A stretch of DNA of 64,000 nucleotides from Candidatus Margulisiibacteriota bacterium (GTDB taxonomy: Bacteria > Margulisbacteria > WOR-1 > JAHJIW01). The position numbers were made by a program, and so were the translations under genes. The notes beneath the pieces were generated by a model that saw only the letters and a list, made by a program, of their open reading frames with translations, made no database searches and was not told where the DNA came from. The stretch lies in contig JAHJIW010000005.1 of assembly GCA_018823125.1 (NCBI GenBank), forward strand, positions 142,542-206,541, given 5' to 3'. Below are positions 8,222 to 58,658 of this stretch, in pieces (the first letter of the stretch is position 1; the number at the start of each line of letters is the position of its first letter).

Positions 8222-8397
8222 TTTTTCTTTCTGCTGCCTTTACCCTGTACACTTTTTTGGTACTTACGGTCCTCGTTCTTCATGGTCTTAAAGTTTCTGC
8301 GGTTGACCTCCGCTACACAGTGTGAGCAAAAAACGCTTCCTTTGGAAACTACTCTGCCGCACTCGCATTTTGGCGCGCCCCTTTTTATTTTTTTCAT
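8218..8397 (-). CDS. Small zinc-ribbon protein (59 aa), not in ORF track
   Basis: Hand translation gives MKKIKRGAPKCECGRVVSKGSVFCSHCVAEVNRRNFKTMKNEDRKYQKSVQGKGSRKKK with CxC...CxxC. AAGGAG sits 8 nt upstream. The gene abuts the ygiQ stop and overlaps the hydrolase start. Confidence 0.45.
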   Translation of the reverse strand: MKKIKRGAPKCECGRVVSKGSVFCSHCVAEVNRRNFKTMKNEDRKYQKSVQGKGSRKKK

Positions 8398-10106: not shown

Positions 10107-10124
10107 ATCTTTAGTATAACAGAA

Positions 10125-10133
10125 TGGTATAAT
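10125..10133 (+). promoter_or_regulatory. Extended -10 promoter TGGTATAAT of typA, positioned for a leaderless transcript
   Basis: aaTGgTATAATatccggATG. The -10 ends 6 nt before the ATG at 10140 and there is no SD. Confidence 0.5.
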
Positions 10134-10139
10134 ATCCGG

Positions 10140-13112: not shown

Positions 13113-13155
13113 GTTGTAATTATAACATTTTTTGGGAAAACGTGCTGTTTTAATT

Positions 13156-15033: not shown

Positions 15034-15034
15034 T

Positions 15035-18038: not shown

Positions 18039-18806
18039 ATGAAATATATCTTATTGTTAGACTACGATGGTACCTTAACGCCGATCGTCAAAACTCCGGA
18101 ACTAGCTAAACTTTCGTCTGCTAACCGCCGGCACCTAAAAAAACTTGCTGAAACCAAAGACCTGACGGTTTGCATTGTCAGCGGCCGCGCCCTAAAAGAC
18201 ATAAAAAACAAAGTAAAAATCCCGGACATATATTATATCGGCAATCACGGCTTTGAAATGGAAGGGCCCCAAGGAAAAATGATTCAGTCCCAGGCCAAAA
18301 AATATCTGCCATTAATGTCCAAAATCAAAAAAGATCTCAAGCCGCTGCTTAAAATCAAAGGCGTCATCGTAGAAGATAAAAAATTCACGTTGAGTGTGCA
18401 TTATCGATTGGCTTCTCCCTCCGGAGCACGTAAAATCAAAGCGCTGACCGAAAAATATTTAAAACCCTACGCTAAAGCAAAGCGCATCCGGGTTACCTAC
18501 GGCAAAAAAGTAATCGAAATCCGCCCGCCGATTAAATGGGATAAGGGTAAAGCCGTACTTTGGATCTTAAATGCGCTAAAAATTAAGGATGCCATCCCGA
18601 TTTATATCGGCGATGATGTCACCGATGAGGATGCCTTTCGGGTGCTGAAAAAAATCGGCGTAGCGGTCCGCGTCGGCCGCGCTAAAAAATCGTGCGCCGA
18701 CTATTTTTTAAGAGAAGTCGGCGAGGTTTACAAACTTTTACACTTCATTCAAAATGTGATAGAATCATCGCCAAGTTGTGTTAAAATGCCCAAGAGGAAA
18801 AAATAA
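18039..18806 (+). CDS. otsB: Trehalose-6-phosphate phosphatase (HAD superfamily)
   Basis: LLLDYDGTLTPIV motif I, GDDVTDEDAF motif IV. Confidence 0.8.
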   Translation: MKYILLLDYDGTLTPIVKTPELAKLSSANRRHLKKLAETKDLTVCIVSGRALKDIKNKVKIPDIYYIGNHGFEMEGPQGKMIQSQAKKYLPLMSKIKKDLKPLLKIKGVIVEDKKFTLSVHYRLASPSGARKIKALTEKYLKPYAKAKRIRVTYGKKVIEIRPPIKWDKGKAVLWILNALKIKDAIPIYIGDDVTDEDAFRVLKKIGVAVRVGRAKKSCADYFLREVGEVYKLLHFIQNVIESSPSCVKMPKRKK

Positions 18807-18808
18807 AG

Positions 18809-19516
18809 ATGAAAGCTAAAGTCCCTTTTGTTTTTTATACCAGTTCACAGCTCGTTCAAATTACCGGCAAAAAAGCCGCGCACTTAAAAGAATTTGTTGA
18901 AGTCATGAAAGAAGTTGAAGACTCAACTATCTTTTACCACATCCACCACGCTTACCGCGAACACCAGTTTGCCCCCGGCGCTTACTCTAACGATTTTGCC
19001 CACTGGGTCGGCGAAGAACTGGGCGAATCCGCCCTGGCCGAAAAACTGGCTAACTTAAGCATTAAGGATGTCACCAGCTTGTCGGTGCTGCGCAGCAGAA
19101 TTATTGAAATTGTTGAAGAATTTCTTAATAACGCCACCGAAATCCGCCGTGCCGCTCCCCAGCACGAATTTTATTTTTGTAAAAACATCGGATTTATCAG
19201 TAAAACCAAGTATCAGGCCTGGGATTTAGGCGAATTTTGCGAAATGCTTAAAAAAGTGGGGCTGCGTTCACTCTTCTTTCACTTTTTTGAAGCCCGCCTG
19301 CGCTTAAACCGCCGCACCAACGACTTTTCGGACTGGATCAAAGCCGACTTCAATGACGCGGTGCTGGCTAATAAAATTGAAGCGCTGGATCCTTACGTTT
19401 ATACCCTAGATGAATTACGCGATAAAATTATTTCACTGATCAAAGCAAGCCAAGGTTTTCCATGGAAGAAGGCGGTTAAATGGCTCAGTTCAAAATTAAA
19501 GATTACGCAAAAATAA
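18809..19516 (+). CDS. Hypothetical protein embedded in sugar-osmolyte operon
   Basis: 235-aa ORF. Adjoins otsB and overlaps the GT4 gene. No motif I recognise. Confidence 0.5.
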   Translation: MKAKVPFVFYTSSQLVQITGKKAAHLKEFVEVMKEVEDSTIFYHIHHAYREHQFAPGAYSNDFAHWVGEELGESALAEKLANLSIKDVTSLSVLRSRIIEIVEEFLNNATEIRRAAPQHEFYFCKNIGFISKTKYQAWDLGEFCEMLKKVGLRSLFFHFFEARLRLNRRTNDFSDWIKADFNDAVLANKIEALDPYVYTLDELRDKIISLIKASQGFPWKKAVKWLSSKLKITQK

Positions 19517-20709
19517 TTCGTCCGCAAAATTTTGACGAACTGCAGCTCCTGGCCGAAAGGGTCAGGGGCAAAACCCTGAAAATGGTTAATTCTACCGCGG
19601 TGGGCGGCGGCGTGGCCGAAATCTTAAGCCGCTTTATTCCGCTGATTAACGAGTTAGGGGTTATAACCAAATGGGAAGTAATTAAAGGTTCGGGAGCGTT
19701 TTTTGGGGTAACCAAGGCCTTTCACAATGCACTGCACGGATCCAAAGTGGACGTTTACGGCCAGATGTTTGAAATTTTTCGTGAAAATAACGAAGAAAAC
19801 CGGCGCAATATGACTTTTGATGAGGATTTTGTGGTGATTCACGATCCGCAGCCGGCCGGCCTGATTGAATCCAAGAAAAAATCTAAAACAAAATGGGTGT
19901 GGAGATGCCATATCGATCTTTCCAATCCGCAACCCGAGATCTGGAACTTTTTAAAGGGCTACGTTTCTAAATATGACGGTTCGATATTTTCAACTCCCTG
20001 GTTTGCCAAAGAACTGCCCATTCCGCAGTATTTTATTTTTCCGGCCATCGATCCGCTGAGCGAAAAAAATAAGGATTTAACCCCGTCCGAAGTTGATAAA
20101 ATACTCAGAAAATACAATATCGACCGCAGCCGGCCCATTGTTACCCAAATTTCTCGTTTCGATCGCTTAAAAGATCCGGTGGGCGTCATCAAAGCCTACA
20201 AATTAGCTAAAAAGCATACCGACTGCCAGCTGGTTTTAGCCGGCGGATCGGCCTCCGATGATCCGGAAGGGGCAGAAGTACTGGAAGAAGTTAAAAACGA
20301 AGCGGGTAATGATCCGGACATCCATATTTTATCGCTGCCGCCGTTTGCCGATTTAGAAATTAACGCTCTGCAGCGGGCTTCGACCATTGTTATGCAAAAA
20401 TCTCTGAGAGAAGGCTTTGGCTTAACCGTGACCGAGGCGCTCTGGAAAGGTAAACCCGTAATTGCCAGCGCGATTGGCGGAATTACCCTGCAGGTTATCC
20501 ATAATTTTACCGGTCTTTTGGTGCACTCCGTTGAAGGTGCGGCTTATCAAATCCGCTATTTACTCAATAACCCGCAGGTAGCCGAACGGCTGGGTAGATA
20601 CGGCAAAGAACAGGTTCGTGAAAAGTTTTTGATTACCCGCATTCTGCGAAATTATCTCTTATTACTGATTGCACTAGACCATCCTAATGAAAACATCATT
20701 CAACTTTAA
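19480..20709 (+). CDS. GT4 family glycosyltransferase (possibly TreT-like glycosyl-transferring synthase)
   Basis: N-terminus VNSTAVGGGVAEIL. The C-terminus has an EX7E-type GT4 fold (REGFGLTVTEALWKGKPVIAS). Confidence 0.65.
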   Translation: MAQFKIKDYAKIIRPQNFDELQLLAERVRGKTLKMVNSTAVGGGVAEILSRFIPLINELGVITKWEVIKGSGAFFGVTKAFHNALHGSKVDVYGQMFEIFRENNEENRRNMTFDEDFVVIHDPQPAGLIESKKKSKTKWVWRCHIDLSNPQPEIWNFLKGYVSKYDGSIFSTPWFAKELPIPQYFIFPAIDPLSEKNKDLTPSEVDKILRKYNIDRSRPIVTQISRFDRLKDPVGVIKAYKLAKKHTDCQLVLAGGSASDDPEGAEVLEEVKNEAGNDPDIHILSLPPFADLEINALQRASTIVMQKSLREGFGLTVTEALWKGKPVIASAIGGITLQVIHNFTGLLVHSVEGAAYQIRYLLNNPQVAERLGRYGKEQVREKFLITRILRNYLLLLIALDHPNENIIQL

Positions 20710-27765: not shown

Positions 27766-28929
27766 ATGAAAATTGCTTTTGATGCCCGGTGGATTCATTC
27801 ATCAAATTTAGACGGGTTGGGGGGCTATGCCCTTAACCTGCTGATCCACCTGCTTAAAAATGATCCGCAAAACCGGTATTTAATCTTATTCGACCGTGAA
27901 GACCGCCGCCGGTTTATTATTCGTGAACTTACTAAAGCCGCCGTTCCCAAAGAGCGTTTCTCTGAACTAACAACTTTTTCCGAAACGTCAGCCTTAAAAA
28001 ACACATTTTGGCTGCCGCGGATTTTAGGCCACCATCAGGTGGACGTGGCTTTTGCTCCCAATTATATTTTTCCGCCGTTTTTTAAGAGATATAAAACGGT
28101 GGTGATGGTTCCGGATTTAATCCCGTTTTATTATCCGCGGTATTTAAAACGGGCCTGTTATTTTATGAAATTTATCCACCGCTTCCGGGCCGTCGTGCAA
28201 ATGATATTTAAACGCAGTGATTTAATCATTGCGTTATCCAAAGGAATTCAAAAAGATATCGAAACCCACTTTAAAATTGATCCGGCTAAAATTAAACTGG
28301 TTTATCCGGGCATCGAAGATATTTATTTTCAGCCGATACCGAACGATGAAATTGCCATGGTCAAAAAGATTTATAGCCTTCCCGATAATTATATTTTATA
28401 CTTCGGCCGCCACGAAAAAGAAAAAAATATTGACGCCTTAATTAATGCGTATGCCCGGCTGCCCGAAGACTGGCGTAGTAAAATAAAACTTTTTATTGGC
28501 GGATTGCATTCAAATTTAACTTCACAGGAATTGGATAATTTAGTCAGTAAATTAGGCATTAAAGACAATGTTATTTTTCCTGGATATATAGCCAAAAATC
28601 ATCGACCCACTATTATTAAAATGGCTAAGGCGATGGTCTTTCCTTCAAGCTACGAAGGCTTCCCATTAGTCGTATTTGAAGCGATGGCGGCTAAGGTGCC
28701 AGTAGTTGCCTCCGAACGCTTTAAAAGTGAATGCGGCGAGGCTATCTGCGCGGTAGAATCAACCAATAACCGCCAAATTGCGGATGAATTGAAAAAGTTG
28801 TTGTCCGACTTCACCTTTTATTCAAAAATGCAAAAAACGGGCCAGGAATTAGCTGGCCAATTCCGCTGGGACGCTGCGGCCAAAAAAGTGCTGAAATTGC
28901 TAAATTCGCTGGGACCCCAAAATTTGTGA
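27766..28929 (+). CDS. GT4 family glycosyltransferase
   Basis: EGFPLVVFEAMAAKVPVVAS (EX7E motif). Confidence 0.7.
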   Translation: MKIAFDARWIHSSNLDGLGGYALNLLIHLLKNDPQNRYLILFDREDRRRFIIRELTKAAVPKERFSELTTFSETSALKNTFWLPRILGHHQVDVAFAPNYIFPPFFKRYKTVVMVPDLIPFYYPRYLKRACYFMKFIHRFRAVVQMIFKRSDLIIALSKGIQKDIETHFKIDPAKIKLVYPGIEDIYFQPIPNDEIAMVKKIYSLPDNYILYFGRHEKEKNIDALINAYARLPEDWRSKIKLFIGGLHSNLTSQELDNLVSKLGIKDNVIFPGYIAKNHRPTIIKMAKAMVFPSSYEGFPLVVFEAMAAKVPVVASERFKSECGEAICAVESTNNRQIADELKKLLSDFTFYSKMQKTGQELAGQFRWDAAAKKVLKLLNSLGPQNL

Positions 28930-29053: not shown

Positions 29054-29398
29054 ATGGGATTCAATGTTTTTGGTGCGAATGTAGGCGGAGCTTTGAACAG
29101 AGCAACCTATAGTGTCGGGGGCAAGGCAAAGGAATACGGAAAGCTGGCACAAAGTGTTGGTCGAGGGTTTAACCTTTTAGGATATGCGTTACACGGGGAG
29201 TTTAAAAAATCAACCGATGGTCTTGCTAATCGTGCCGGGGTTGATGAACAAGAGCAAGATAGACTCACAGGTGGAACTGATACTGATTTAAATGGTGAAG
29301 CAGAAGTGACGGCTACCGGAAACGAACAAATTGTTGCCCCGGTAAATTTCTCAGATCCAAACAGTTCAGCCGGCGGCACCATAGACATTACTGGATAA
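29054..29398 (+). CDS. Hypothetical Gly-rich protein (114 aa)
   Basis: SD AAAAGGAG. MGFNVFGANVGGALNRATYSVGG... with an acidic C-terminus. First gene after promoter A. Confidence 0.5.
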   Translation: MGFNVFGANVGGALNRATYSVGGKAKEYGKLAQSVGRGFNLLGYALHGEFKKSTDGLANRAGVDEQEQDRLTGGTDTDLNGEAEVTATGNEQIVAPVNFSDPNSSAGGTIDITG

Positions 29399-29408
29399 GG
29401 AGTAATCA

Positions 29409-29630
29409 ATGCCATTTCAAATTGATTGGGTTACGATTGCAATTGTACTTTTTGTGATTTTAGTTTTGTACCATGGTACAAAAATCATCTCTTCATACTT
29501 AAAATTAAGAAACACCAAAAAGAAGCTTAAAGAATTAGATGCCCAGCTTAAAGGCATCAATGCTCAAATTGAAACTCATAAAAATAAAATTCAAGCTGAA
29601 ATTAATCAGCGGCAAAATAAACAGGAATAA
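29409..29630 (+). CDS. Small TM plus coiled-coil protein (73 aa)
   Basis: One N-terminal TM (WVTIAIVLFVILVLY) followed by a K/Q-rich helix. SD GGATAAGGAG. Confidence 0.5.
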   Translation: MPFQIDWVTIAIVLFVILVLYHGTKIISSYLKLRNTKKKLKELDAQLKGINAQIETHKNKIQAEINQRQNKQE

Positions 29631-29632
29631 AT

Positions 29633-30880
29633 ATGACAACCTTTGATCCAGTAAATACTAATTCAGCCAGATCACTTATCCCTCGGTTCGAGAGAGGGAC
29701 CCCGGATGAGCAGATCAGCCGTGACGAGTGGGGTCACCATAACGATCCTGATCAATTTAATAGTCATGATAGCAATGGTGATGGTAAGTTGAATGCAGAC
29801 GAATTTTTAGAACTGATTAATGCAAATCGAAATATCACCATTTATGACATTGACGGAAAACCCATCGGTGTGGTAGAAGAAGGGGTGCTTACTGAAGTAC
29901 CACCGGAAGCCAATCCGGCTGCGGATGAAGTAGATCCAGATGACACTACTGCAGATGCTGGTCTTTTAGCTGCACCAGGTGAAGCCTCCGATAACTCAAC
30001 AGAAATAGACGCTCTCCGCAAACTTTATACTCTAGTGAGTGAAGGAGAACGAGTGATCATTGGTGGGCAAGCAATTGATCTTCCTCCAATGATGATGGAG
30101 GCTTTTGGGATCCGGGGCACCGAAAGAGACTGGGTTGGCAAGGCGAAAAACTTTTTAGAAACACGTGGTGGTGAGATTTACGTTAGAGGAGACAAACTGT
30201 TTAAATTTTTAAAACATACCACGGATATTGATGATGCAAATTTAAAAGTTGTGGAAGCACTTTTTGGAAATTATGACGGACAGATTACCGCAGAAGATGC
30301 CATCTTGTTAGATGATTTTATTAGTATCATGCGGGGCAAGATGATTGACCTCACTACCGAAGGTGAGTATTTTGGTGAATGGGTCACCCGCCGTCTGCAA
30401 AAATTTGATTACAGTGAGCTGGGCAACAGACTACAGGCCCTGAATTTTAAAGCACTGGGACCGAAAGCTGAGCAAATCTATAACCTGGCCCTCTTGAGAA
30501 CCAGAGAATCAGATAAAAAGGCTACCGAACCAAATTGGGATTATGTAGCCATGTATTTAATGAACAACTTCTTTAAATCAGCTAAAAAATCTTATAATCC
30601 TACACAAAAAGCAGTCATGATGCAAATAAAGTGGGACGATCCGCTGGCACTGCAGGAACTAGTGCACGAAATTTCTTCTCGAGACGATGCCGGTGAAGAA
30701 ATTACGGTTAGCATTATCGGAAGTTGGTTATCCGAAGGCGAACTACCAAGTACCAGAGATCTTTTATATCTACTTAGAGCTTCGCACGGTAATGTGGATG
30801 CCACATTAGAACCAGTTACGGTGGCGGAAAGCGATACCTCAGCCGCCGAAATCACAGCTTCTTTAGTTGTAGGGAAATAA
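29633..30880 (+). CDS. Hypothetical protein with EF-hand/dockerin-like Ca-binding loop (415 aa)
   Basis: HDSNGDGKLNADEF fits the DxNxDGxIxxxE loop. Acidic overall. Confidence 0.55.
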   Translation: MTTFDPVNTNSARSLIPRFERGTPDEQISRDEWGHHNDPDQFNSHDSNGDGKLNADEFLELINANRNITIYDIDGKPIGVVEEGVLTEVPPEANPAADEVDPDDTTADAGLLAAPGEASDNSTEIDALRKLYTLVSEGERVIIGGQAIDLPPMMMEAFGIRGTERDWVGKAKNFLETRGGEIYVRGDKLFKFLKHTTDIDDANLKVVEALFGNYDGQITAEDAILLDDFISIMRGKMIDLTTEGEYFGEWVTRRLQKFDYSELGNRLQALNFKALGPKAEQIYNLALLRTRESDKKATEPNWDYVAMYLMNNFFKSAKKSYNPTQKAVMMQIKWDDPLALQELVHEISSRDDAGEEITVSIIGSWLSEGELPSTRDLLYLLRASHGNVDATLEPVTVAESDTSAAEITASLVVGK

Positions 30881-30885
30881 CCTTT

Positions 30886-31125
30886 ATGTTTGACCTTTCT
30901 CCCTTTGAAATTAGTCTTTTAGTCTTGGCCGCGATTGGGTTATTAGGTGCATTCTATTTTCTGATGAGAGGAATCAAGGCTAAATCCGATCGAAAATTAA
31001 GACTTATTGCCAAACGTGCACGCAGTGAAGCAAAAATTGAAAAATATCGGGAGCACATTCAAGATAACATTGATCAAACCAAGGCCAAATTACAAGATCA
31101 AATCAACCAATCCAAGCGTCAATAA
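30886..31125 (+). CDS. Small TM plus coiled-coil protein (79 aa), paralogue-like of 29409..29630
   Basis: N-terminal TM (ISLLVLAAIGLLGAFYFL), then a KLQDQINQSKRQ-type helix. Same architecture as the 73-aa ORF. Confidence 0.5.
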   Translation: MFDLSPFEISLLVLAAIGLLGAFYFLMRGIKAKSDRKLRLIAKRARSEAKIEKYREHIQDNIDQTKAKLQDQINQSKRQ

Positions 31126-31175
31126 TCCTTCCTTTTCGAGACTGCCTCATTCAGCAAAAAATATGCATTATTTAT

Positions 31176-31203
31176 GCAAGTTTTTGCCTTCAGAACCCGA
31201 TAT
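31176..31203 (+). promoter_or_regulatory. Sigma-28-class promoter-like motif, copy B: GCAAGTTT-N12-CCCGATAT
   Basis: tttatGCAAGTTTttgccttcagaaCCCGATATat, 50 nt upstream of the giant ORF. Confidence 0.55.
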
Positions 31204-31253
31204 ATTTAGTGAAGCCACGCTAAAAACTATATAGTTAAAAGGCAAATTTTATT

Positions 31254-34200
31254 ATGGTTAATTTTGAGGTCGTAAATAGCATCCAAAATATTGAAGATTT
31301 AAAAGACGATTTACCAATCGGGGAACCTACTCAATCTAATTATATCCCCAATGAGATAGAAATTTCGGATGATGTTTTAAAAGTTGATACTGCCAGCATT
31401 AACAATAATCCTTCTTCGCCTTCCTCAAAATCTGACTTCAAAAGTATTAAAAAAGCCTTACAAAACGACCATCATAACTTCATCAAAAACTTTCAATTTT
31501 ACTGGGGCCAATATGGTGGTGGGGAACCATTAAATGGCAGTTGGTCTGGTGTTACGCAGGCTCTGTTCAACAACGGTTTACTAGATGGAATCGATCTTCC
31601 GGGAGATACCCATCAGTGTGATGGTGATATGCCAGACGGGTGGGATTCAACAGACTCAACATCTGAAACCGGTGGAACCGAAAATAGTGGATCTACAACA
31701 AACGATACCTCTTCGACGAATGAAACGATGGGAGATCTTTTTGACAGCGTGGATAACATGATTGATGAAATTAACTCAATTATTGATGGGTTTTCTGCTG
31801 ATGATTTTGATTTCGACCAAATGATTGCAGACCAGGATAAGATTATGGAGTATTGCAATATGTTACGTACCATCGCAATTATATTAGAAGGTTTGTATCA
31901 TTCACGTGAAATGGTTGCCGAAGAACTATCCGGGCATAAAATTGAATCGGATCGCGGATTCAAAAAGATAGTAGAAGGCTATGTTACCAATCGGGTACAA
32001 ATGATTCAAGCTCAATTGATGGAATCGATAACTAATTATCTTGATCAACTAGAGGCAGATTATGATAAAAAACTTGCCCAAATTGAAGAAGATCACGCTG
32101 ACGATTGCGATAATATGGATAAGGAAGAAGCCATTGCCAATGCCACCAAAGAGTATGAAGAAAAATTAGAAAAATTAACCAGTCAAATGCAAAGTGCATT
32201 CTCAAAACTATACAATTCTGATATCTCGCTTAGTGATATCGGATCTGCTGATGAATTTAAAGAAGAAATGAATGCCTTAGCTAATAATATTATACTGAGC
32301 GGTTTTTCTACTATGTCAACTACGGAAAACGGTTATTATGATCCCGGCGTTGAAAAAATGGAGGGGATCCGTAGTAAACTAAATGATTTACACAATATGA
32401 ACCGGGCGATAACGATTGCACTTTATACTCCGCTAGAGTTAAGAGAAACGGTTTCGCGTGAATTACAGGGAAAAGTAGGTACCGTTTTAAATAAAGATAT
32501 GACCGTCAGCGCAGAAGAAGAGACCATGGCCATTCAAACCAGTTCATTAGATACCTCCATGAATTTACAACTAAAGTTAGCCCAGGTTCATAACGAATAT
32601 AACTATCACTATCTGCAATGGGTTAAATTAGATGCTTCTTATGCCGCGCGAGTTTGGGAATGGCTAAACCGTGCCGGAGCTATCGTAATGTCCATTTTCT
32701 CGATTGTTTGTCCTTATTTGATGATCGGTGTAGTAGCGGCTAATATTGCAGCTAGTTTATGTAATTTTGCCGGTCAAAATGAAGCAAATAATAATATTGA
32801 TGATTCATTTGATTTAGACGTACCGGATCGCGTAGAGGAAGAGGAAAACTCAGACCCAAGTTGGGTGCCGCAGACATCCGGCCAGCAAAGTGTGCTGGAT
32901 GGTATTTCAGATATGGGTTACATCGAAGGTGACGATGGTCTGCTGTATTTTGATACCACGATCAGTGCGCAATTATATGGTGAAATGGGAGCGATGCAAA
33001 ATATTATTAGAGCCCAATTACTTATTTTGGAAGCCAAGCAAGATTTAAGAAATACCGTAAAAGAAGAACTAGATGGATTCCCGGCCGCTTCCAATAATTC
33101 AACTACCGTTAAAAATGCTTATGCTTCTCAAAATGCCATGTATCTATTTGCGTCCCAGGCGCGCACCTTTGTCAAAGATCAAATTCGTTTTTATACCAAT
33201 ACCGAACGTATGCAACAAGAGCAAATTGATAAAGCCGCCACTAACTGTTGGATTTCCATTGGGGCTTCGGCATTGGGTGGAATACTTTCGATAATTAATC
33301 CGGCTTTGGGAGGAATTGTTGGAACGCTGTTGGGTGCCGCAGCTTCAATTATTACGAGTGCGGTGAATAATAGCTGGGCTATGGATTATGATCAGCTGCA
33401 TGCGGGTGCAAACTTTGTGGATGATACTAGCATTAATGGGAGTGGTTCCAACCATCATGATCCGGAATTTCCCGAAACCGAGTTAGACGTCGCAGAACAA
33501 GATGTTTTACAAGATGCTACGGCATTAGGATTTATTGAAACTGGAACCAATGGATTTAGCGGACCGCTCGGTGGTGCTTATTTCACCGTAGATCCTGCAC
33601 AAATTATAGAATTGCGACAAAAACTAGCTGAAATCCAAAATCGTAGAATGGGTATTATTACCATCCGGAGAGCGCTGGCAGAAATGCGTAAAGCGGTACA
33701 TGCTGAAATGACTGGAAAAGTGGGCACCATGGGTAAATCCTATCAAACTTCCACCGAGGCTGCGGTAGCCCAAACCAGGATTATTGGACAACAACTCCAG
33801 CATATTATAAATTTCGTTAGTCAAAAAGCACAACTTGAAAACCGGGTCACCGATGCCAAAAAGCAACTGGTGCAAGATATTATCTCAGGAAGCATCTCGG
33901 GAGGAATTTCGATAGCCGGAACGATCCTCGGTGCTGCAGTTAAAGGAGCTACCGATGTTATTTGGGCCGTGGCTAATAGTGTTGCTAATTTTTCCAGTAA
34001 TCTGTGTCAGATCATATTCAGTGCATCAGATATTAATGAGAGTTCAAATATGCTTAATGAAGAAGACCTTACCCAGCGCCTCATCGAAGGTTTGAGGAAG
34101 ACCTATTCATCCGGGAAAGACGATAATTCTATCCGGGAAGCAGAACTCAATGTGTTATCTCAAATTACAACTGAGCTCATTGAGTCTATGCAAGGGGGAT

Positions 34201-36869
34201 TATGGGGATTAAATGCCGGATGGAAAGACTATTTTGCCAGTTTAATGGAAAAAATATTTAGGATTCAAGAAGCACAACGTAAAATATTACAGGGCATTGT
34301 CGAGATGAAAGCCAACGTGCACCAAACGTTTACCGGAAAACCGTCGGTGATGCTGATGGATGCTTCATCACTGCTGAGCGCTGAAGAAACCAAGGCCATG
34401 AGTTTAGTTTCAGATATGTTTAGTTACCTGGAAATGATCGTGACTCAGCATAATCGTATGGCTCAAGCGGAGAAAAATCTTTGGCTTTCAATTATCGAAT
34501 CGGTGGCTACCGTAGCACAATCCATTGCTTATACTGTTTCAACGGCTAATGGTGAGAAAGCCGATAATCTGCAAAAAGACATGAAAGACAATCCAAACCT
34601 TAATACCTTAAAAAATAATATCGAGCTGGCTAATTTTTCGAAGCAATCTACCAAGTGGTATAACATTTATTTATTAATGAATATTTGCCAAACCTGGAAC
34701 CGGGTTGTTGTCGGAAATTTAATTGATTTAGCTTTAAGCGATAAGTACGCCAAAAATGGTCCTAATATTGCAGTGGATGCTACCTCGGATTGTGAATTTG
34801 CTCAGATGAAAAAAGAGGCGATCGAGGCTAGTCTGCAAAAGGGACAAGCGGAACTATCCCGCATGAATTCGGCGGCTTCTTTTGAGAAATTTCAGGAGTT
34901 TTATCAAGCCGCCTGGCAATCGTTGGAAGACGTTAGTTATTTAGTAGCTAAATTGGCAAAAGAAAAAGCGGACCAAGGATTTGCGGTTGTGGACAAAGCT
35001 AATCGTCAGGATTATTACAACTCATGTACTAGTGCTGGTCAAAACTACCTTGAAATTCAAGAGGATCTCCTGGATCTATTGGAGCTTTTAGAAACGGTTC
35101 CACGTGATTCTGATCAGGCTCAAGAAATTAGAGATCAAATTACTGCTAAATCCAATCAGCTAGAGACCATGAGTACAGAAATGGTGGAATTAATCGAAGT
35201 AGCTGAAGAAAATAGGGTAGTAGAAGCTTCACGCGATACCAAAGGTACGCCGCAAATACCAATCTTTGATATACATAATGTAACACCTCAATTTCAGCAA
35301 CAGGTTCAAAGCAGCACCACCGCACTCTTAGCATATGCCGATCAGCTGATGGCACAAATGCAACCAACGGATACCACGGCACCGGTATCGGCTCAAGTGA
35401 TTGAAGAATGCCCCGAAACAAAGCAAAAACGACTGGAAGCTCAGGAAAGCCTACAATCCTTAAAAACTACCACCGATCGTATGGCAGATAGTGAAATTGT
35501 GTTCAAAGGTATTGCTACCATGGAAGAAGCCCAAAGCATAGATCAGGTCTCCAATGGAGAAACTGCTAAACCGGAGACCGAGGAAGAATGCTTAACTAAT
35601 ATCCGAGAGTTAAGGGGCCAAAGATCAGCTATTCTTAATGATAAAACTTTGACCAGAGAACAAAGAGCACAGTCACTACAAGAAGTTTCCAAGAGCTTAA
35701 ATCTTAATATTCATCACTTAAGAGGCTTCATTAGAAAACGCATGAGCAAAGCTAATCAGGGGTTAGGTGAGCTTCAGATATTAAATAAAGTTGACCGCGA
35801 AATGGATCGTTTATTAGCGGAACATTGTAATATTGAGATGACACCGCCGAGTGAATCAGTAGTTGCTCCAGCTGGAACTGCAGCCACTGAACCGGCGCAA
35901 TCCCAAAGAAGAGAGGAAGATTCTGATTCGGTAAGTGCCCTGGTTGAAGACAGTCTGGCATTAAGAGAAACGATCGAAAGCTCACCAGCTTTAGCTGATC
36001 TTGCTCAACCAATTCCGGTTGATAATGTAATGGCCGAATACATTCCGGAAGCACGTTCGCAATCTTCTGATGCTAACTTTAATGCCTTGCTGAATTCAAT
36101 TGAAGCTTCAATCAATGCCAGAGAAGCGGCTTTAAATAATGAAGGAATACAACCAAATGAGGCCGACATTGCAACCAGAGCAGGGGAAGTTACACTTCCG
36201 GAAACTTTAGAAGAGCTTAGAACATTGCGTAGAGAAAAATTAATTGAAAGAACGAATCTTCAGTCTGAATGGCAGGATAATACTCAAGAAATTGATTCCC
36301 AGATTGAAACCTTAACTGCGTATACCCAAACTTTACAAGATTTAGAAACGCAAGCCGCAGGTGTAACCCAAATGCTTTCTAATTTAATGAATCAACCCGC
36401 AGCCGAAGATGAAGTCATAAAGCTTGAAGCGTTAAATACAATGATTGGCCAAAGAATTGATCATTTAGAAGAAACGTCAGGTCTTTTGAGGCAGTCTTTA
36501 GAAGCTACTACCCAAAGATCACTTAATATTATGGGTCAAATTAAGGATATTAATGCAGATATCCAATTAATCGAAGCTAAAATGGATGATGTTAGAGAAC
36601 GGATTAGTGGTATAGAAATTACTGATGAGGAGCCAAAAACTGCACAACTCAATATTGATACTCAGGTATCGCATAAGAATCCAAGAAGAAGCATCCTTAA
36701 TGATTTAATGGGTGGTTTTTCGACCTGGATTACACCAAATTCAAGCGCTAATAACGGTTCAACTCAGGCCCGCAGAGTTGATACCGGTAGACAAACCTCT
36801 ATATATAATGAAAGAGAAAAAGCAGCCCGCGCCCAAGAAGAATTAACCGAAAAAAGTTTTTCTGCCTAA
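31254..36869 (+). CDS. Giant (1871 aa) coiled-coil protein with three Gly/Ala-rich hydrophobic segments, no recognisable homology
   Basis: Acidic S/T/D-rich N-terminus. Long heptad-like Q/E/L/N-rich stretches. Hydrophobic segments AGAIVMSIFSIVCPYLMIGVVAANIAASL, ISIGASALGGILSIINPALGGIVGTLLGAAASIITSAV and SGSISGGISIAGTILGAAVKGATDVIWAVANSV. No Walker motifs. Confidence 0.7.
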   Translation: MVNFEVVNSIQNIEDLKDDLPIGEPTQSNYIPNEIEISDDVLKVDTASINNNPSSPSSKSDFKSIKKALQNDHHNFIKNFQFYWGQYGGGEPLNGSWSGVTQALFNNGLLDGIDLPGDTHQCDGDMPDGWDSTDSTSETGGTENSGSTTNDTSSTNETMGDLFDSVDNMIDEINSIIDGFSADDFDFDQMIADQDKIMEYCNMLRTIAIILEGLYHSREMVAEELSGHKIESDRGFKKIVEGYVTNRVQMIQAQLMESITNYLDQLEADYDKKLAQIEEDHADDCDNMDKEEAIANATKEYEEKLEKLTSQMQSAFSKLYNSDISLSDIGSADEFKEEMNALANNIILSGFSTMSTTENGYYDPGVEKMEGIRSKLNDLHNMNRAITIALYTPLELRETVSRELQGKVGTVLNKDMTVSAEEETMAIQTSSLDTSMNLQLKLAQVHNEYNYHYLQWVKLDASYAARVWEWLNRAGAIVMSIFSIVCPYLMIGVVAANIAASLCNFAGQNEANNNIDDSFDLDVPDRVEEEENSDPSWVPQTSGQQSVLDGISDMGYIEGDDGLLYFDTTISAQLYGEMGAMQNIIRAQLLILEAKQDLRNTVKEELDGFPAASNNSTTVKNAYASQNAMYLFASQARTFVKDQIRFYTNTERMQQEQIDKAATNCWISIGASALGGILSIINPALGGIVGTLLGAAASIITSAVNNSWAMDYDQLHAGANFVDDTSINGSGSNHHDPEFPETELDVAEQDVLQDATALGFIETGTNGFSGPLGGAYFTVDPAQIIELRQKLAEIQNRRMGIITIRRALAEMRKAVHAEMTGKVGTMGKSYQTSTEAAVAQTRIIGQQLQHIINFVSQKAQLENRVTDAKKQLVQDIISGSISGGISIAGTILGAAVKGATDVIWAVANSVANFSSNLCQIIFSASDINESSNMLNEEDLTQRLIEGLRKTYSSGKDDNSIREAELNVLSQITTELIESMQGGLWGLNAGWKDYFASLMEKIFRIQEAQRKILQGIVEMKANVHQTFTGKPSVMLMDASSLLSAEETKAMSLVSDMFSYLEMIVTQHNRMAQAEKNLWLSIIESVATVAQSIAYTVSTANGEKADNLQKDMKDNPNLNTLKNNIELANFSKQSTKWYNIYLLMNICQTWNRVVVGNLIDLALSDKYAKNGPNIAVDATSDCEFAQMKKEAIEASLQKGQAELSRMNSAASFEKFQEFYQAAWQSLEDVSYLVAKLAKEKADQGFAVVDKANRQDYYNSCTSAGQNYLEIQEDLLDLLELLETVPRDSDQAQEIRDQITAKSNQLETMSTEMVELIEVAEENRVVEASRDTKGTPQIPIFDIHNVTPQFQQQVQSSTTALLAYADQLMAQMQPTDTTAPVSAQVIEECPETKQKRLEAQESLQSLKTTTDRMADSEIVFKGIATMEEAQSIDQVSNGETAKPETEEECLTNIRELRGQRSAILNDKTLTREQRAQSLQEVSKSLNLNIHHLRGFIRKRMSKANQGLGELQILNKVDREMDRLLAEHCNIEMTPPSESVVAPAGTAATEPAQSQRREEDSDSVSALVEDSLALRETIESSPALADLAQPIPVDNVMAEYIPEARSQSSDANFNALLNSIEASINAREAALNNEGIQPNEADIATRAGEVTLPETLEELRTLRREKLIERTNLQSEWQDNTQEIDSQIETLTAYTQTLQDLETQAAGVTQMLSNLMNQPAAEDEVIKLEALNTMIGQRIDHLEETSGLLRQSLEATTQRSLNIMGQIKDINADIQLIEAKMDDVRERISGIEITDEEPKTAQLNIDTQVSHKNPRRSILNDLMGGFSTWITPNSSANNGSTQARRVDTGRQTSIYNEREKAARAQEELTEKSFSA

Positions 36870-36888
36870 AATTATTTTGCATTTTCAT

Positions 36889-36916
36889 GCAAGTTTTTCG
36901 CGTCAAAACCCGATTA
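36889..36916 (+). promoter_or_regulatory. Sigma-28-class promoter-like motif, copy C: GCAAGTTT-N12-CCCGATTA
   Basis: ttttcatGCAAGTTTttcgcgtcaaaaCCCGATTAtc, 24 nt upstream of the ATG at 36941. Confidence 0.55.
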
Positions 36917-36940
36917 TCTAGGTGAGAGGAACAATAACCT

Positions 36941-37186
36941 ATGATTGGAAATGTAGCATCAAGCTTAGCTTCGAATGTAACTTCTAAAGTTGCAGAGTAT
37001 GCTAACGACGTGATTAAGGAGTTGGGCGGAGAAAGTACTCAACAACTTAATCCGGATCAACTGACAGATCAACTGGGAGTTAATACTAGTAGTAAAATCA
37101 ACGGCGCGGAAAACGAATTAAAAGAAGGACAGATGATTAATGCAATGCTGGGTGGAATGGGTGGCAGCGTAAATTTATTAGTGTAA
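36941..37186 (+). CDS. Small helical protein (81 aa)
   Basis: SD GAGAGGA. Central QQLNPDQLTDQL turn and a Gly-rich C-terminus (MLGGMGGSVNLLV). The length and central N-P-x-x-L pattern loosely recall T3SS needle protomers. Confidence 0.5.
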   Translation: MIGNVASSLASNVTSKVAEYANDVIKELGGESTQQLNPDQLTDQLGVNTSSKINGAENELKEGQMINAMLGGMGGSVNLLV

Positions 37187-37198
37187 AGGAATTAAATT

Positions 37199-37501
37199 AT
37201 GAGTTATCAAGCAGCGATGATTGCCGGGGGAGTTAACCAAACTGCTTTGGCTAAAACTAGTAAAGCGGAAAATGCTCATAATAATAACGGTATCAGTTTT
37301 ATCGGATCAATCAGCGAAAGTATTCAAGGTCAACTAGCCGCCACCACGGTAGTTGAAAGAAGCACGATTAAAGATTTAGGAATTAACCAAAAAGAGATTA
37401 ACGGGGAGGAGTGGGGTTGGCCAGACGAAGAAGATTTAGCACAAGAGTTTATTAATAAAATTGAAAGAATACTAAGCCAGATCCAAGGCTTTAGTTCATA
37501 A
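37199..37501 (+). CDS. Small helical protein (100 aa)
   Basis: SD AAAGGA. Contains EEWGWPDEE. Confidence 0.5.
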   Translation: MSYQAAMIAGGVNQTALAKTSKAENAHNNNGISFIGSISESIQGQLAATTVVERSTIKDLGINQKEINGEEWGWPDEEDLAQEFINKIERILSQIQGFSS

Positions 37502-37520
37502 AAAAAGGAGGTGAAATAAT

Positions 37521-37799
37521 ATGACAGCGAACGTAGACATAGTATCACAAGTTTCCGATATGTTAGATACCTTTAGTGCTGAAATGATGAACTTTTTAGG
37601 TGAAATAACGGCAAATGAAGGAACCGGTACACTGACACTGCTTAACCAGTCGTACGACATCGATACCACGACTGCCGGTGGTGTAATGAAATCTGATTTC
37701 ATCGCCAACCAAATGCAAAGTGTAACTCAAAATGCCGTACAAGGAACAAACCTAGTAACTAAAACACTAGGACAGTTAATCGCAAAGTATACCCAATAA
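37521..37799 (+). CDS. Small helical protein (92 aa)
   Basis: Perfect SD AAAGGAGGTGAAAT. Followed by a terminator hairpin. Confidence 0.55.
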   Translation: MTANVDIVSQVSDMLDTFSAEMMNFLGEITANEGTGTLTLLNQSYDIDTTTAGGVMKSDFIANQMQSVTQNAVQGTNLVTKTLGQLIAKYTQ

Positions 37800-37804
37800 G
37801 ATAA

Positions 37805-37836
37805 CGAGGGGTTTCGCGAGGAACCCCTCTTCTAAA
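37805..37836 (+). terminator. Rho-independent terminator-like hairpin
   Basis: cGAGGGGTTtcgcgaggAACCCCTCttctaaaataattt: 8/9-bp GC-rich stem followed by a T-rich tract. Confidence 0.5.
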
Positions 37837-37898
37837 ATAATTTATAGCTTTATAAGTTATTTTTGAAGATAAGAAATAATTAATTAGGGAGGAATAAA

Positions 37899-38204
37899 AT
37901 GGGATACGTTACACCAACCAGTAAAGTAACTAATGCGGTAGTGTCGATGGGCAGCACAATTGACGAAACCATGCGGAGTTTTTATGAAGAAACCCAGCAT
38001 ATTTTGTCCGCAATGCTTAATTATGATGATGATACAACGTTAGAAATCATGGGTATTACTCTTACCGGTGATCAAATTGTTTCTGCTCCAGGACAGTACT
38101 TATTTAATCAGTTTACTTCGGTCTCGGAAAATGTCACCAGCACTTCTTTAAGTATTTGGAATGCGATTAACAAAGCTGAGGAAAGTATCGCGCAAATGAT
38201 ATAA
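37899..38204 (+). CDS. Small helical protein (101 aa)
   Basis: SD AGGGAGG. MGYVTPTSKVTNAVVSMGSTIDETMRSF... Confidence 0.5.
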   Translation: MGYVTPTSKVTNAVVSMGSTIDETMRSFYEETQHILSAMLNYDDDTTLEIMGITLTGDQIVSAPGQYLFNQFTSVSENVTSTSLSIWNAINKAEESIAQMI

Positions 38205-38216
38205 TACGGAGAATTT

Positions 38217-56924: not shown

Positions 56925-58658
56925 TTATCTAGGTAATTCCCCACTAATAAATGCATTGGTCATGGTTTCGGTTGAAGGATTAAGATCATCTCTGGCAGCA
57001 TCAACCCTAAAGGTTGAATCTGCATTTGATCTAAAGAATAAATTTCTTATTTTTACACCTAATTGTTTACCTAATTCAACACCCCATTGATCAAAACTAT
57101 TGATACCCCAAATAAATCCTTTTACCGCTGCACGATGCTCTGTCCAGGCTAGTAATGCTCCTGCAGTAAATGGGGTGAGCTCCTCAATTAACATAACACT
57201 CGATGGGCGATTGCCGGTAAAAACTTTATGTGGAGATAAGCCAGCAATTGCTTCTGGAGAGAGCTTATTTTGGCTGACTAATTCATTGATAACCTCAACC
57301 TCACTTTTCCCAAAAGCCAGCGCATCCGGTTGGGCTAGAACGTTAGAAGATAATTCTTGGTGATGATCAACTTCTTCCGCCGTTTTTTCTCCAACTTGAT
57401 ATTGCGGATTTATCACACCAATAAAATCAGCCGCAACTTTCATGCCTTGGTGAATCAATTGATAGAAAGAATGCTGGCCATTTGTACCCGCTTGGCCAAA
57501 AACTACTTCACCAGTAAAGTATCTAACTACTCTTCCCCAAAGATCAGTTCCTTTTCCATTACTTTCCATCTCAACTTGTTGAGTATGGGCAGGTAGTTTA
57601 TCAAGCGCCTGGCTATAGGGGAGCAACGCTCTAGTTCTAATTCCTAAGAAGTTAATATTCCAAATATCAATTAAAGCAGAAAGAACCGGTATATTTCTGC
57701 TAAAAGGTGTATGCCTAAAATGTTGATCCATCCAACAGGCACCTTCAAGAATTTCTGTAGCTCGATCGTATCCAATATATAATGCTAGTGGTAGCATTCC
57801 AACTGCAGAAGTTGCACTATAACGACCACCAACCCAATCCCAGAATCCAAACATATTGTCCGTATCTATCCCAAATGCTTTAACCTTTTCGGTTGCAGTA
57901 GATGCAGCCACAAAGTGTTTTTTAACAACCTCAGGACTATCCCCCAATCTCTCTCTCATCCATGCTTTTGCGGTTCTTGCATTTTTCATGGTTTCAGCCG
58001 TCGTAAATGTTTTTGATTCTAAGACAAACAAGGTTTCCGCAGGATCTAAATTTTTAGTAACCGTTTTGAAATCGTGGCCATCAACATTAGCTACAAACCT
58101 TAAATCCATTCCTTCTTTTGCATAAGCCGCACAAGCTTCAGACAAAAATTGTGGTCCCAAATATGAACCGCCAATTCCAATCGCAACAATATTCTTTATT
58201 TTTCTATCCGTTACACCCGTTCTTTCTCCACCTAAGACCTCATTAGAAAACGTTTTAATCTTTTCTAATACTTCCCTCACTTGTGGAATTACATTTTCTC
58301 CATCAACGTATACCGGGGTATTATCTTGTTGACGCAATGCGGTATGCAAAACTGCCCGACCCTCAGTAACATTTATTTTCTCCCCATTAAACATAGCTTC
58401 GATTTTAGCTTTTAACCCCGCCGCATCCGCTAACCCAAATAATAAATCCATGGTCTTGTCAGTTGCCAACTGACGGGAATAATCAAAAAATACATGTTCA
58501 GTTCTCACTGACATGTCTTCAGCCCGATGCGGATCACTTTCAAAAGCTTTCCTTAAATTAAGTGGACTAGCTTTGCGTTTTAATGCATGCGCTCTCAATC
58601 TTATCCATTCATACGTACGATTAATTTGTCTTGGTGCTCTTGTAACAGTTGCTCCCAT
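56925..58658 (-). CDS. pgi: Glucose-6-phosphate isomerase, long (577 aa) eukaryote/proteobacterial-type
   Basis: 577 aa. GIGGSYLGPQ and surrounding PGI signature regions. Confidence 0.85.
   Translation of the reverse strand: MGATVTRAPRQINRTYEWIRLRAHALKRKASPLNLRKAFESDPHRAEDMSVRTEHVFFDYSRQLATDKTMDLLFGLADAAGLKAKIEAMFNGEKINVTEGRAVLHTALRQQDNTPVYVDGENVIPQVREVLEKIKTFSNEVLGGERTGVTDRKIKNIVAIGIGGSYLGPQFLSEACAAYAKEGMDLRFVANVDGHDFKTVTKNLDPAETLFVLESKTFTTAETMKNARTAKAWMRERLGDSPEVVKKHFVAASTATEKVKAFGIDTDNMFGFWDWVGGRYSATSAVGMLPLALYIGYDRATEILEGACWMDQHFRHTPFSRNIPVLSALIDIWNINFLGIRTRALLPYSQALDKLPAHTQQVEMESNGKGTDLWGRVVRYFTGEVVFGQAGTNGQHSFYQLIHQGMKVAADFIGVINPQYQVGEKTAEEVDHHQELSSNVLAQPDALAFGKSEVEVINELVSQNKLSPEAIAGLSPHKVFTGNRPSSVMLIEELTPFTAGALLAWTEHRAAVKGFIWGINSFDQWGVELGKQLGVKIRNLFFRSNADSTFRVDAARDDLNPSTETMTNAFISGELPR

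Follow-up and report, generated by a model that had tools for sequence, protein, structure and literature searches.

Organisation of the four small genes

We analysed a stretch of 64,000 nucleotides (hereafter the window, meaning the whole stretch) from the genome of Candidatus Margulisiibacteriota bacterium (assembly GCA_018823125.1, contig JAHJIW010000005.1, positions 142,542 to 206,541 of the forward strand), with a focus on four consecutive small open reading frames (ORFs) located downstream of a giant gene that encodes a protein of 1871 amino acids (p1871). An initial annotation, made from the sequence alone, had placed four ORFs of 81, 100, 92 and 101 amino acids (aa) within positions 36941-38204, and these coordinates and lengths are exact. 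The four ORFs, together with the two hairpins that lie between the third and the fourth, are the following:

36941-37186, plus strand: s81, 81 aa, acidic, with a Gly-rich tail and a terminal VNLLV; putative member of family B
37199-37501, plus strand: s100, 100 aa; assigned to family A
37521-37799, plus strand: s92, 92 aa; putative diverged member of family C
37806-37829, plus strand: GC-rich stem-loop with a 10-bp stem, just 3′ of the s92 gene
about 37830-37867, plus strand: second hairpin, AT-rich, in which a CUUCUAAAA tract pairs with a downstream UUUUUGAAG
37899-38204, plus strand: s101, 101 aa; assigned to family D

The four ORFs are genuine genes. All of them are present in the public annotation of the source metagenome-assembled genome (MAG), and the codon-usage log-odds of each are positive in the annotated frame (+0.20 to +0.36 bits per codon) and negative in the other five frames (-0.2 to -1.5). 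To train the underlying codon model, we used 25 housekeeping genes from the window that are confirmed by Pfam; these score 0.37 on average and 0.14 at minimum. Orthologues or profile matches were found in other genomes for three of the four proteins. Moreover, the proportion of nonsynonymous differences is lower than that of synonymous differences (pN < pS) for all four genes when two Saganbacteria are compared, and the same holds in every pair compared. The exact proteins of the window are also present in four MAGs of Candidatus Margulisbacteria or Margulisiibacteriota (GCA_018814585.1, contig JAHIZP010000005). All the proteins of the surrounding gene block that we looked up are annotated as ‘hypothetical’, and 9 of 10, including the four small ones, correspond to singleton clusters at 90% identity.

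The products of the four genes resemble each other in composition: they are acidic (isoelectric point, pI, of 4.0-4.6), free of Cys, nearly free of Arg and rich in Ser, Thr, Asn, Gln and Gly. Neither a signal peptide nor a transmembrane (TM) segment was found in any of them. The initial annotation attributed a strong Shine-Dalgarno (SD) motif to every ORF. This is correct for s92, whose motif AAGGAGGTGA is the strongest of the four, and also for s101 (GGGAGGA) and s81 (GGTGAGAGG), but the motif of s100 (AAGGAA) is only moderate. A promoter (‘promoter C’) proposed ahead of the first three genes could not be confirmed. The sequence at 36843-36872 is a sigma-70-like match of 9/12, and such matches are no more common than expected by chance (37 found versus 40.4 expected from shuffles). 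The spacer between the giant gene and s81 carries no significant RNA structure (z = -0.1).

Conservation of the cluster and assignment of the small genes to families

A conserved-loop peptide scan of GTDB genomes and JGI metagenomes returned 29 loci, originating from candidate division WOR-1/Saganbacteria, from Margulisiibacteriota single-cell genomes and from further MAGs. Downstream of the giant gene, these loci encode 3-4 ORFs of 60-135 aa, a p523-like protein, a protein of 164-183 aa, a p136-like protein and a p553-like protein. The four small genes of the window belong to this conserved cluster, in which the order giant gene, A/B, C, D, p523, p216-like gene, p136 and p553 is kept across 30 loci. 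The window and loci L008, L010 and L014 also have the same upstream neighbourhood, composed of ispF, pdxJ, rpiB and a nucleoside triphosphate (NTP) transferase gene, within a conserved ispF-gltX-pdxJ-rpiB-NTP_transferase flank; the block is therefore vertically inherited and chromosomal, and not a mobile island. No relatives were found in viral contigs (2.9 million contigs of IMG/VR).

Homologues of the small proteins were recruited among all 3219 ORFs of the fetched loci. Jackhmmer searches started from s100 recruited 23 ORFs at E ≤ 5e-15 (family A), and those started from s101 recruited 18 ORFs at E ≤ 5e-27 (family D, alignment A4). In the reverse direction, the hidden Markov models (HMMs) of these families find only s100 (E = 6e-30) and only s101 (E = 3e-33), respectively, among the ORFs of the window, and the two assignments are secure. 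The gene of family D is always located directly upstream of the p523-family gene. That of family A overlaps the stop codon of the giant gene in Saganbacteria, and is found upstream of the giant gene in loci L012, L013 and L015.

Family C comprises 19 ORFs recovered from seeds of other loci. We assign s92 to this family as a putative diverged member. HMMER does not recruit it (E = 0.18), hhalign gives P = 4e-4 over 43 C-terminal columns (alignment A5), and the position, the length, the SD motif and the downstream hairpin of s92 are all as in family C. The strong SD motif AAGGAGGTGA also precedes family C genes in L003, L004 (second copy), L005 and L014. Families C and D themselves are probably distant paralogues, as suggested by hhalign comparisons of the two profiles (P = 2.8e-5 over 92 columns with jackhmmer alignments, P = 5e-4 over 43 columns with MAFFT alignments).

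The protein s81 is tentatively assigned to family B as a fast-evolving, predicted positional orthologue. Its match to the family B HMM (E = 0.59) is not significant, although it is the best among the 356 ORFs of the window. Positional orthologues of 77-88 aa are present in L003, L004, L005, L015 and L017, and have only their C-terminus in common (V[NS]x[LM][VI]). The end of s81, GSVNLLV, resembles the ends of Saganbacteria orthologues (e.g., GANVNLLV), the last eight residues or so following the pattern G-x-x-V-N-x-L-V. A C-terminal V[NS]x[LM][VI] occurs in 10 of the 3219 ORFs of the fetched loci, nine of which are at the family B position, and in a single ORF of the window, s81 itself. In Margulis-type loci, an unalignable polar ORF of 58-94 aa is located directly upstream of A, in the same B-A-C-D order as in the window. 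Between two Saganbacteria, families B and C are 33-38% identical, A and D 53-56%, and the p136 proteins 66%.

A strong stem-loop is specific to the 3′ end of family C genes

The initial annotation described the run of small genes as split by an internal hairpin after the third gene. This organisation is real and is conserved across the family: in all 16 distinct loci, the stop codon of the family C gene is followed within 5-30 nt by a GC-rich stem-loop of 9-16 bp. The median minimum free energy of the 60 nt located 3′ of the stop codon is -25.9 kcal/mol for C, with 88% of the loci at or below -15 kcal/mol; for the same span, the medians after A, D, p523, p136, p553 and p73 range from -6.1 to -7.3 kcal/mol. 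The strong stem-loop is thus specific to the 3′ end of C and absent after the six other cluster genes tested. A T-run often trails the stem-loop in Margulis-type loci.

In the window, the GC-rich stem-loop at 37806-37829 and the adjacent AT-rich hairpin jointly reach -23 kcal/mol (z = -4.8), and none of 200 dinucleotide shuffles folds as well. A GC hairpin terminator had been proposed at 37805-37836. The strong stem-loop stands, but its tail, CUCUUCUAAAAU, is not a clean U-run, which explains why a consensus scanner called no terminator on the plus strand. We read the GC-rich structure as an intrinsic-terminator-like or 3′-end-stabilising hairpin. The second hairpin arises from pairing between a CTCTTCTAAAA-like tract and a TTTTAGAAGAG further downstream. 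It is present in the window as well as in four Saganbacteria loci (L003, L004, L005 and L015), although the proteins are only about 20-25% identical. It may correspond to a processing or regulatory element. The sites of this structure include 37806-37867 in the window, 15510-15600 in L003, 16295-16370 in L005 and 19880-19950 in L015, among others. No match to Rfam was obtained anywhere in the block, including the hairpins.

The conserved, C-specific hairpin argues for an organisation of the cluster in two transcription units, the giant gene with (B/A) and C, then D, p523, p216, p136 and p553, with gene C set up for the highest output. A similar arrangement is known from pilus and fimbrial operons, where an intra-operon hairpin after the gene of the major subunit raises its output, as for papA. 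The cluster is like these operons in having a stem-loop right after one small gene, followed by putative genes for minor components. It differs from them in that it contains no usher, chaperone, sortase or type IV pilus genes, and its small proteins have no signal peptide or prepilin leader.

Unrelated genes are inserted in the spacer between C and D in several loci. We also noticed, among the small genes, inserts encoding 119-179 aa that by eye resemble the four-helix-bundle/23S rRNA intervening-sequence family. They are located in the spacer between C and D in L014 (17466-17825), upstream of C in L004 (15611-16150), L010 (15241-15636) and L024 (15157-15591), and downstream of the giant gene in L013 (19001-19438).

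Predicted shape of the small proteins

The small proteins had been described as helical, which agrees with the predictions for some parts of them and not for others. The AlphaFold2 model of s81, computed from the single sequence, is of low confidence (predicted local distance difference test, pLDDT, of 69; predicted template modelling score, pTM, of 0.30). It shows a helix (residues 2-29), a loop (30-37), a second helix (38-71) and a disordered tail. The Gly-rich tail noted initially is therefore present, and is floppy in the model. A Foldseek search of the PDB with this model returned nothing. In families C and D, the periodicity averaged over the alignments suggests an N-terminal amphipathic helix, a break rich in Gly, Asp and Asn, a non-helical middle and a long C-terminal amphipathic helix, so that only the ends of s92 and s101 are predicted to be helical. 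The middle of family C proteins is variable in length (0-60 residues) and, in s92, rich in Gly and Thr; s92 also carries a motif ‘IDxxxxxGxhV..D’. Most of s100 escapes the description as well. Its N-terminal 35 residues or so are polar, without hydrophobic periodicity, and include an invariant Phe (F34); beyond them, the periodicity of the family A alignment (A7) supports only one short amphipathic helix and, at the C-terminus, a second amphipathic helix that is acidic and conserved (EE-AQxIxxxIxKI).

The giant protein p1871

The protein p1871 contains five diverged modules spaced by about 200 aa, which were noticed by eye and are alignable (alignment A1), although BLAST fails to detect the repeats. 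In the AlphaFold2 model, each module is built from a short helix and a beta-hairpin, a helix of 40 aa, a conserved loop and a helix of 45-70 aa. The loop follows the consensus R-N-L-V-H-x-E-M-T-G-[IV]-G-G-R in each module and is near-invariant across the family; the loops of p1871 have diverged from it (e.g., RKAVHAEMTGKVGT). In modules 3-5 of p1871, the second helix continues into a Gly/Ala-rich hydrophobic segment, and in module 2 such a segment is carried by a separate helix pair. Beyond the modules, the protein has a long tail of acidic coiled coil.

An exhaustive HMMER search of 1.84 billion representative proteins with a five-module profile detected 50 relatives at E ≤ 1e-3, of which 24 at E ≤ 1e-10, so that the giant family has at least 50 members counted at the 50% identity level (numbered P0012-P0061). 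In nearly all of them, the length is 1300-3000 aa and the profile matches 4-6 stretches. Their modules are colinear, and after most modules comes a hydrophobic segment, in many cases as long as a hairpin. The closest relatives of p1871, P0012 and P0019, are about 30-38% identical to it. Word-index searches with p1871 or with a 47-member alignment retrieved only p1871 itself and one relative. The model of residues 150-1120, obtained with a 47-sequence alignment, reaches a pLDDT of 73.7 and a pTM of 0.71. It has no Foldseek match in the PDB or in BFVD, and no Pfam domain was detected in the giant family. The positive-inside rule fails to orient the protein in the membrane.

Two loci have unusual giant genes, which could be due to duplication or to assembly frameshifts: L008 carries two in tandem (7379-13594 and 13792-16020) with near-identical N-termini, and in L010 (4864-14929) the giant gene is present as three ORFs (445, 1192 and 1702 aa). 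Weak BLAST co-linearities raised the possibility that the small proteins are free-standing modules of p1871. This was rejected, as the module HMM scores them at chance level and hhalign comparisons of a 200-module profile with families A-D give probabilities of at most 7%.

Other genes of the block and its surroundings

The four small genes are part of a plus-strand block (29054-44004) with the order p114, p73, p415, p79, p1871, s81, s100, s92, s101, p523, p216, p136, p58, p553 and p381. None of these genes passes a curated cut-off in Pfam, NCBIfam, PHROGs or PADLOC. Besides the small genes, the following were characterised:

29054-29398, plus strand: p114, 114 aa, Gly-rich, first gene of the block; genes of 103-120 aa at this place in other loci
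29409-29630, plus strand: p73, small bitopic protein with a predicted N-terminal TM helix and a basic coiled coil; conserved cluster member
29633-30880, plus strand: p415, acidic; genes of 360-471 aa at this place in other loci, the equivalence being positional only
30886-31125, plus strand: p79, paralogue of p73 (TM helix and basic coiled coil)
31254-36869, plus strand: p1871, giant protein of 1871 aa with five diverged modules
38217-39788, plus strand: p523, aromatic-rich, with a Lys-rich tail; conserved, always right after the family D gene
39886-40536, plus strand: p216; genes of 164-183 aa at this place in other loci, no homologue recruited
40538-40948, plus strand: p136, basic, about 130 aa; best-conserved small protein of the cluster, with an invariant NLEYE
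41186-42847, plus strand: p553, basic coiled coil; conserved cluster member (15 jackhmmer matches)
42859-44004, plus strand: p381, acidic coiled coil, last gene of the block; Pfam coiled-coil matches all below threshold

The equivalence of p114 with the genes found at its place elsewhere is positional only, since no sequence homologue was recruited for it among the ORFs of the fetched loci; for p381, too, none was recruited in this set. The jackhmmer search with p73 gave 30 matches, 28 of which are small ORFs, including p79, and two of which are spurious (giant ORFs). The relationship between p73 and p79 is also seen by BLASTP (E = 0.003, in a tiny database). Near its N-terminus, p415 carries a canonical-looking EF-hand-like loop, DSNGDGKLNADEF; the corresponding Pfam EF-hand matches are weak and below the cut-off. 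The alignment of p523 (A9, 16 jackhmmer matches) contains invariant W, H, D, R and Y positions, and p523 has no match in the PDB. For p136 (19 jackhmmer matches; 56% mean column identity in alignment A8), profile searches returned nothing credible in the PDB. This protein would be a good anchor for spotting further copies of the cluster as new genomes appear.

The block is flanked by housekeeping genes, with gltX, pdxJ, rpiB and genes for the NTP-transferase and a GT4 glycosyltransferase upstream, and hisF/hisH, groEL, nusA and infB downstream. Glycosyltransferase genes were observed in or beside the cluster in the window (GT4, 27766-28929), in L003 (19256-20362 and 22584-23687) and in L032 (16759-17871). 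They belong to several types: GT2 with TPR repeats (L003, L032), a CgeB-like glycosyltransferase with DUF3880, and GT4 (window). Their presence hints that some product of the cluster is glycosylated, and is compatible with glycosylation of the Thr/Ser-rich small proteins, though no proof of it.

Further away in the window, a plus-strand run at 16572-20709 forms a trehalose module (OtsA-like GT20, trehalose phosphatase, DUF5752 and TreT-type trehalose synthase). A HEPN-domain protein of 149 aa (59259-59708) is followed by an ORF of 103 aa (59774-60085), and the two may form a HEPN/MNT-type toxin-antitoxin pair. This segment has a lower GC content (0.36) and lies between phosphoglucose-isomerase-like genes (56925-58658 and 60082-61464). 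An ORF of 659 aa on the minus strand (61522-63501) has no Pfam match at E ≤ 0.001.

The small proteins match none of the known secretion families

The initial annotation compared the small helical proteins located beside large coiled-coil proteins with the substrates and chaperones of secretion systems. The layout is real and evolutionarily conserved, and the proteins are partly helical, but the named secretion families could not be retained. Pfam and NCBIfam hold the needle, WXG100, FliS/FliT/FlgN and LXG-partner families, and none of their models matches any of the four small proteins at E ≤ 1. Sequence and profile searches of the PDB also gave no match for the four.

A likeness of s81 to the needle of type III secretion systems (T3SS) had been suggested from its length and from a central N-P-D-Q-L turn. 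This turn is missing from the positional orthologues, in which only the C-terminal tail is conserved. No alignment between s81 and PrgI (sequence entered by hand) was obtained by BLASTP at E ≤ 100, and hhalign comparisons of PrgI with alignments A4 and A5 give probabilities of 0.1-0.2%. Components of the T3SS export apparatus (SctN/V/R/S/T/U/C/J) were found neither in the cluster nor in the 64-kb window nor in the fetched loci scanned with Pfam, and the cluster and the whole window likewise encode no secretion ATPase, gate or secretin. Families C and D are nevertheless like the T3SS needle proteins PrgI/MxiH/YscF, the EspA filament protein and the D0 domain of flagellin in their small size, the absence of Cys and of a signal peptide, and predicted terminal amphipathic helices around a variable middle. 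The helix-loop-helix predicted at low confidence for s81, and probable paralogous minor subunits encoded beside a larger downstream gene, would be further points of likeness. However, there is no sequence or profile similarity to these proteins, and no export apparatus genes are located nearby. The predicted loop of C and D is an insert of 20-60 aa, compared with their tight PxxP turn, and those systems are devoid of a giant five-module membrane partner such as the one seen here.

The situation is similar for WXG100 proteins and for the LXG-Lap systems, in which, as here, several helical proteins of about 100 aa accompany a much larger helical one, and with which the possibility of long bundles is shared. 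None of the four small proteins matches PF06013 or TIGR03930; the only hits to WXG100 models are sub-threshold matches of p381 (E = 0.057 in Pfam, E = 0.2 in NCBIfam). The sequence E-E-W-G-W-P of s100 (residues 70-75) does not have the form W-x-G, lies away from the centre of the protein and varies among the sequences of alignment A7. No FtsK/SpoIIIE-type ATPase (EssC/EccC) is encoded in the window or in the fetched loci examined, and the host lineage is sister to Cyanobacteria. Finally, p136, which has the size of FliS, shares the absence of a credible PDB profile match with the four proteins themselves. The general idea that the small proteins are dedicated helical partners of their large neighbours is thus partly supported and survives, whereas the specific family assignments do not.

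A putative membrane-associated assembly and its alternatives

We propose that the products of the four genes are subunits of a membrane-associated assembly, so far undescribed and specific to the Margulisbacteria/Saganbacteria lineage, in which C would be abundant, D minor, and A and B accessory, a reading in which we place even confidence. Such an assembly would be organised around the giant protein, with its five predicted coiled-coil-hairpin modules and several hydrophobic hairpins. It would be located at the cytoplasmic membrane, anchored by the giant protein and by the small bitopic p73/p79. C would be the most abundantly made product and a helical-hairpin structural subunit, the conserved terminal amphipathic helices of which could pack as a coiled coil, leaving the variable middle exposed. 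D, made together with p523, may be a minor or adaptor subunit. A and B may be accessory proteins, for the most part unstructured, which would attach to the giant protein or to its partners, A through its acidic amphipathic C-terminal helix and B through its G-x-x-V-N-x-L-V tail.

Several observations weigh against this proposal. HMMER places neither s92 in family C nor s81 in family B, and both assignments were made from one hhalign P-value, a tail motif and gene position. The folds of A, C and D are deduced from sequence periodicity only, and the polymerisation of C is something that we purely infer. The hairpin of the window has no clean U-tract, and a terminator located 3′ of a gene is no proof that its product is abundant. 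The flanks of the hydrophobic hairpins of the giant protein are only slightly enriched in Lys and Arg (0.124 versus 0.098), which does not settle its topology, and the first module of p1871 lacks a hydrophobic hairpin. Lastly, the cluster encodes no NTPase, which leaves the energy source for export or assembly unexplained.

The main rival, possible in our view though doubtful, is a membrane-anchored scaffold that stays entirely inside the cell, for instance as a polar landmark or as a cytoskeletal or membrane-shaping structure. The small proteins would then be stoichiometric adaptors or regulators that bind the coiled-coil hairpins of the giant protein, with neither filament nor export. It accounts for the lack of a signal peptide on the small proteins and, judging from its N-terminus, on the giant protein, and for the lack of an NTPase for export. 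In p73/p79, the basic stretch behind the TM helix points to a coiled coil located in the cytoplasm, and both ends of each hydrophobic hairpin are on the side of the soluble modules. Giant acidic membrane-anchored repeat proteins are known as polar hubs (HubP, TipN). The giant protein is, like HubP, FimV and TipN, very large, acidic (pI 4.5) and coiled-coil-rich, with internal repeats and predicted membrane anchoring. It shares no LysM, TPR or other domain with them and, unlike them, has modules that are colinear between relatives and carry a conserved loop and a hydrophobic hairpin. The conserved terminator and the very strong SD motif, which mark C for high output, better fit a bulk structural component, and exposed surfaces more typically show a middle as variable as that of C and evolution as fast as that of B and C; the unsettled topology of the giant protein also counts against the scaffold. 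The proteins could also form a new envelope apparatus of Margulisbacteria/Saganbacteria, which we consider unlikely. In this apparatus, the giant protein would form a base or conduit with p73/p79, with four to five of its hairpins in the membrane and five fingers of coiled coil whose tips are conserved. C, possibly glycosylated, would polymerise into a filament, sheath or lattice; D and p523 would be minor or cap components, and A, B and p136 assembly factors. The apparatus would be independent of known secretion and pilus systems and would function without a dedicated NTPase encoded in the cluster.

The remaining explanations are less probable still. That the small proteins are substrates or chaperones of a classical non-Sec secretion system (T3SS, WXG100/type VII secretion, FliS/FliT/FlgN), the machinery of which would be encoded elsewhere, seems improbable. 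The absence of signal peptides and the acidic, Cys-free, Ser/Thr/Asn/Gln-rich composition are as in many non-Sec substrates, and s81 is predicted to be helix-loop-helix. The large neighbours are rich in coiled coils and hydrophobic hairpins, as are T3SS translocators, and glycosyltransferase genes, present beside or inside the cluster (GT4 in the window, GT2-TPR in L003 and L032), also neighbour the genes of some exported filament proteins. These likenesses are outweighed by the negative model searches, by the lack of conservation of the NPDQL turn and of WGW in s100, and by the absence of an ATPase, gate or secretin from the cluster, the window and the fetched loci examined; in addition, the cluster is a chromosomal core located next to rpiB in free-living groundwater lineages. 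Very little speaks for the giant protein being a single-chain analogue of the 5:2 motor pentamers (GldL5M2, ExbB5D2, MotA5B2, ZorA5B2) built around the TM helices of p73/p79, with the small proteins as driven or coupling elements. The parts list is similar to that of GldLM, ExbBD, MotAB and ZorAB, with about five TM hairpins and small single-TM partners. There are five tandem modules, each followed by a hydrophobic hairpin in many family members, two small single-TM paralogues in the window, and a globally confident AlphaFold2 model, the pTM of 0.71 predicting that the five modules form one assembly. However, no protonatable (charged) residue is conserved in the TM helix of the p73 family, most loci contain a single copy of p73, and a hairpin is missing from module 1 of p1871. 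The number of hairpins varies, with a mean of 3.9 hydrophobic segments per protein instead of five hairpins. Foldseek against the PDB returned no stator protein, there is no Pfam match to MotA_ExbB, ExbD or GldL, and neither fold nor sequence resembles these motors. Least credible of all, and largely refuted, is a phage, mobile or defence origin, in which the block would be a degraded prophage or mobile island with a tape-measure-like giant, or a defence or polymorphic-toxin locus, and the small ORFs would encode chaperones, immunity proteins or morons. The GC content of the block (0.38-0.41) is slightly below that of most of the upstream housekeeping region (0.42-0.46), its genes are all ‘hypothetical’, and the top hits in BFVD, none of them significant, are to tape-measure or minor tail proteins. 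These matches do not go beyond E = 0.015, with TM-scores of about 0.1; nothing significant was found in PHROGs or PADLOC, nor any relative among the viral contigs. The block contains no integrase, capsid or terminase genes, its codon usage is host-like, and its chromosomal position and gene order are kept across deeply diverged genomes.

Significance

Margulisbacteria and Saganbacteria are uncultured sister lineages of Cyanobacteria, and to our knowledge almost nothing is known of their cell biology. In these bacteria, a cluster of 12-15 genes keeps its order, its chromosomal position and an intra-operon hairpin, yet has no detectable relative among described families, which points to an undescribed conserved cellular machine. 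The alignments A4, A5, A7, A8 and A9 and the module profile A1 provide targets for predicting structures, for heterologous expression and for cryo-tomography on enrichment cultures. Should the small proteins belong to a new filament or export device, the cluster would define a new class of bacterial surface or secretion machine, of which few are known; if the complex is intracellular, it would represent a new membrane-scaffold system.

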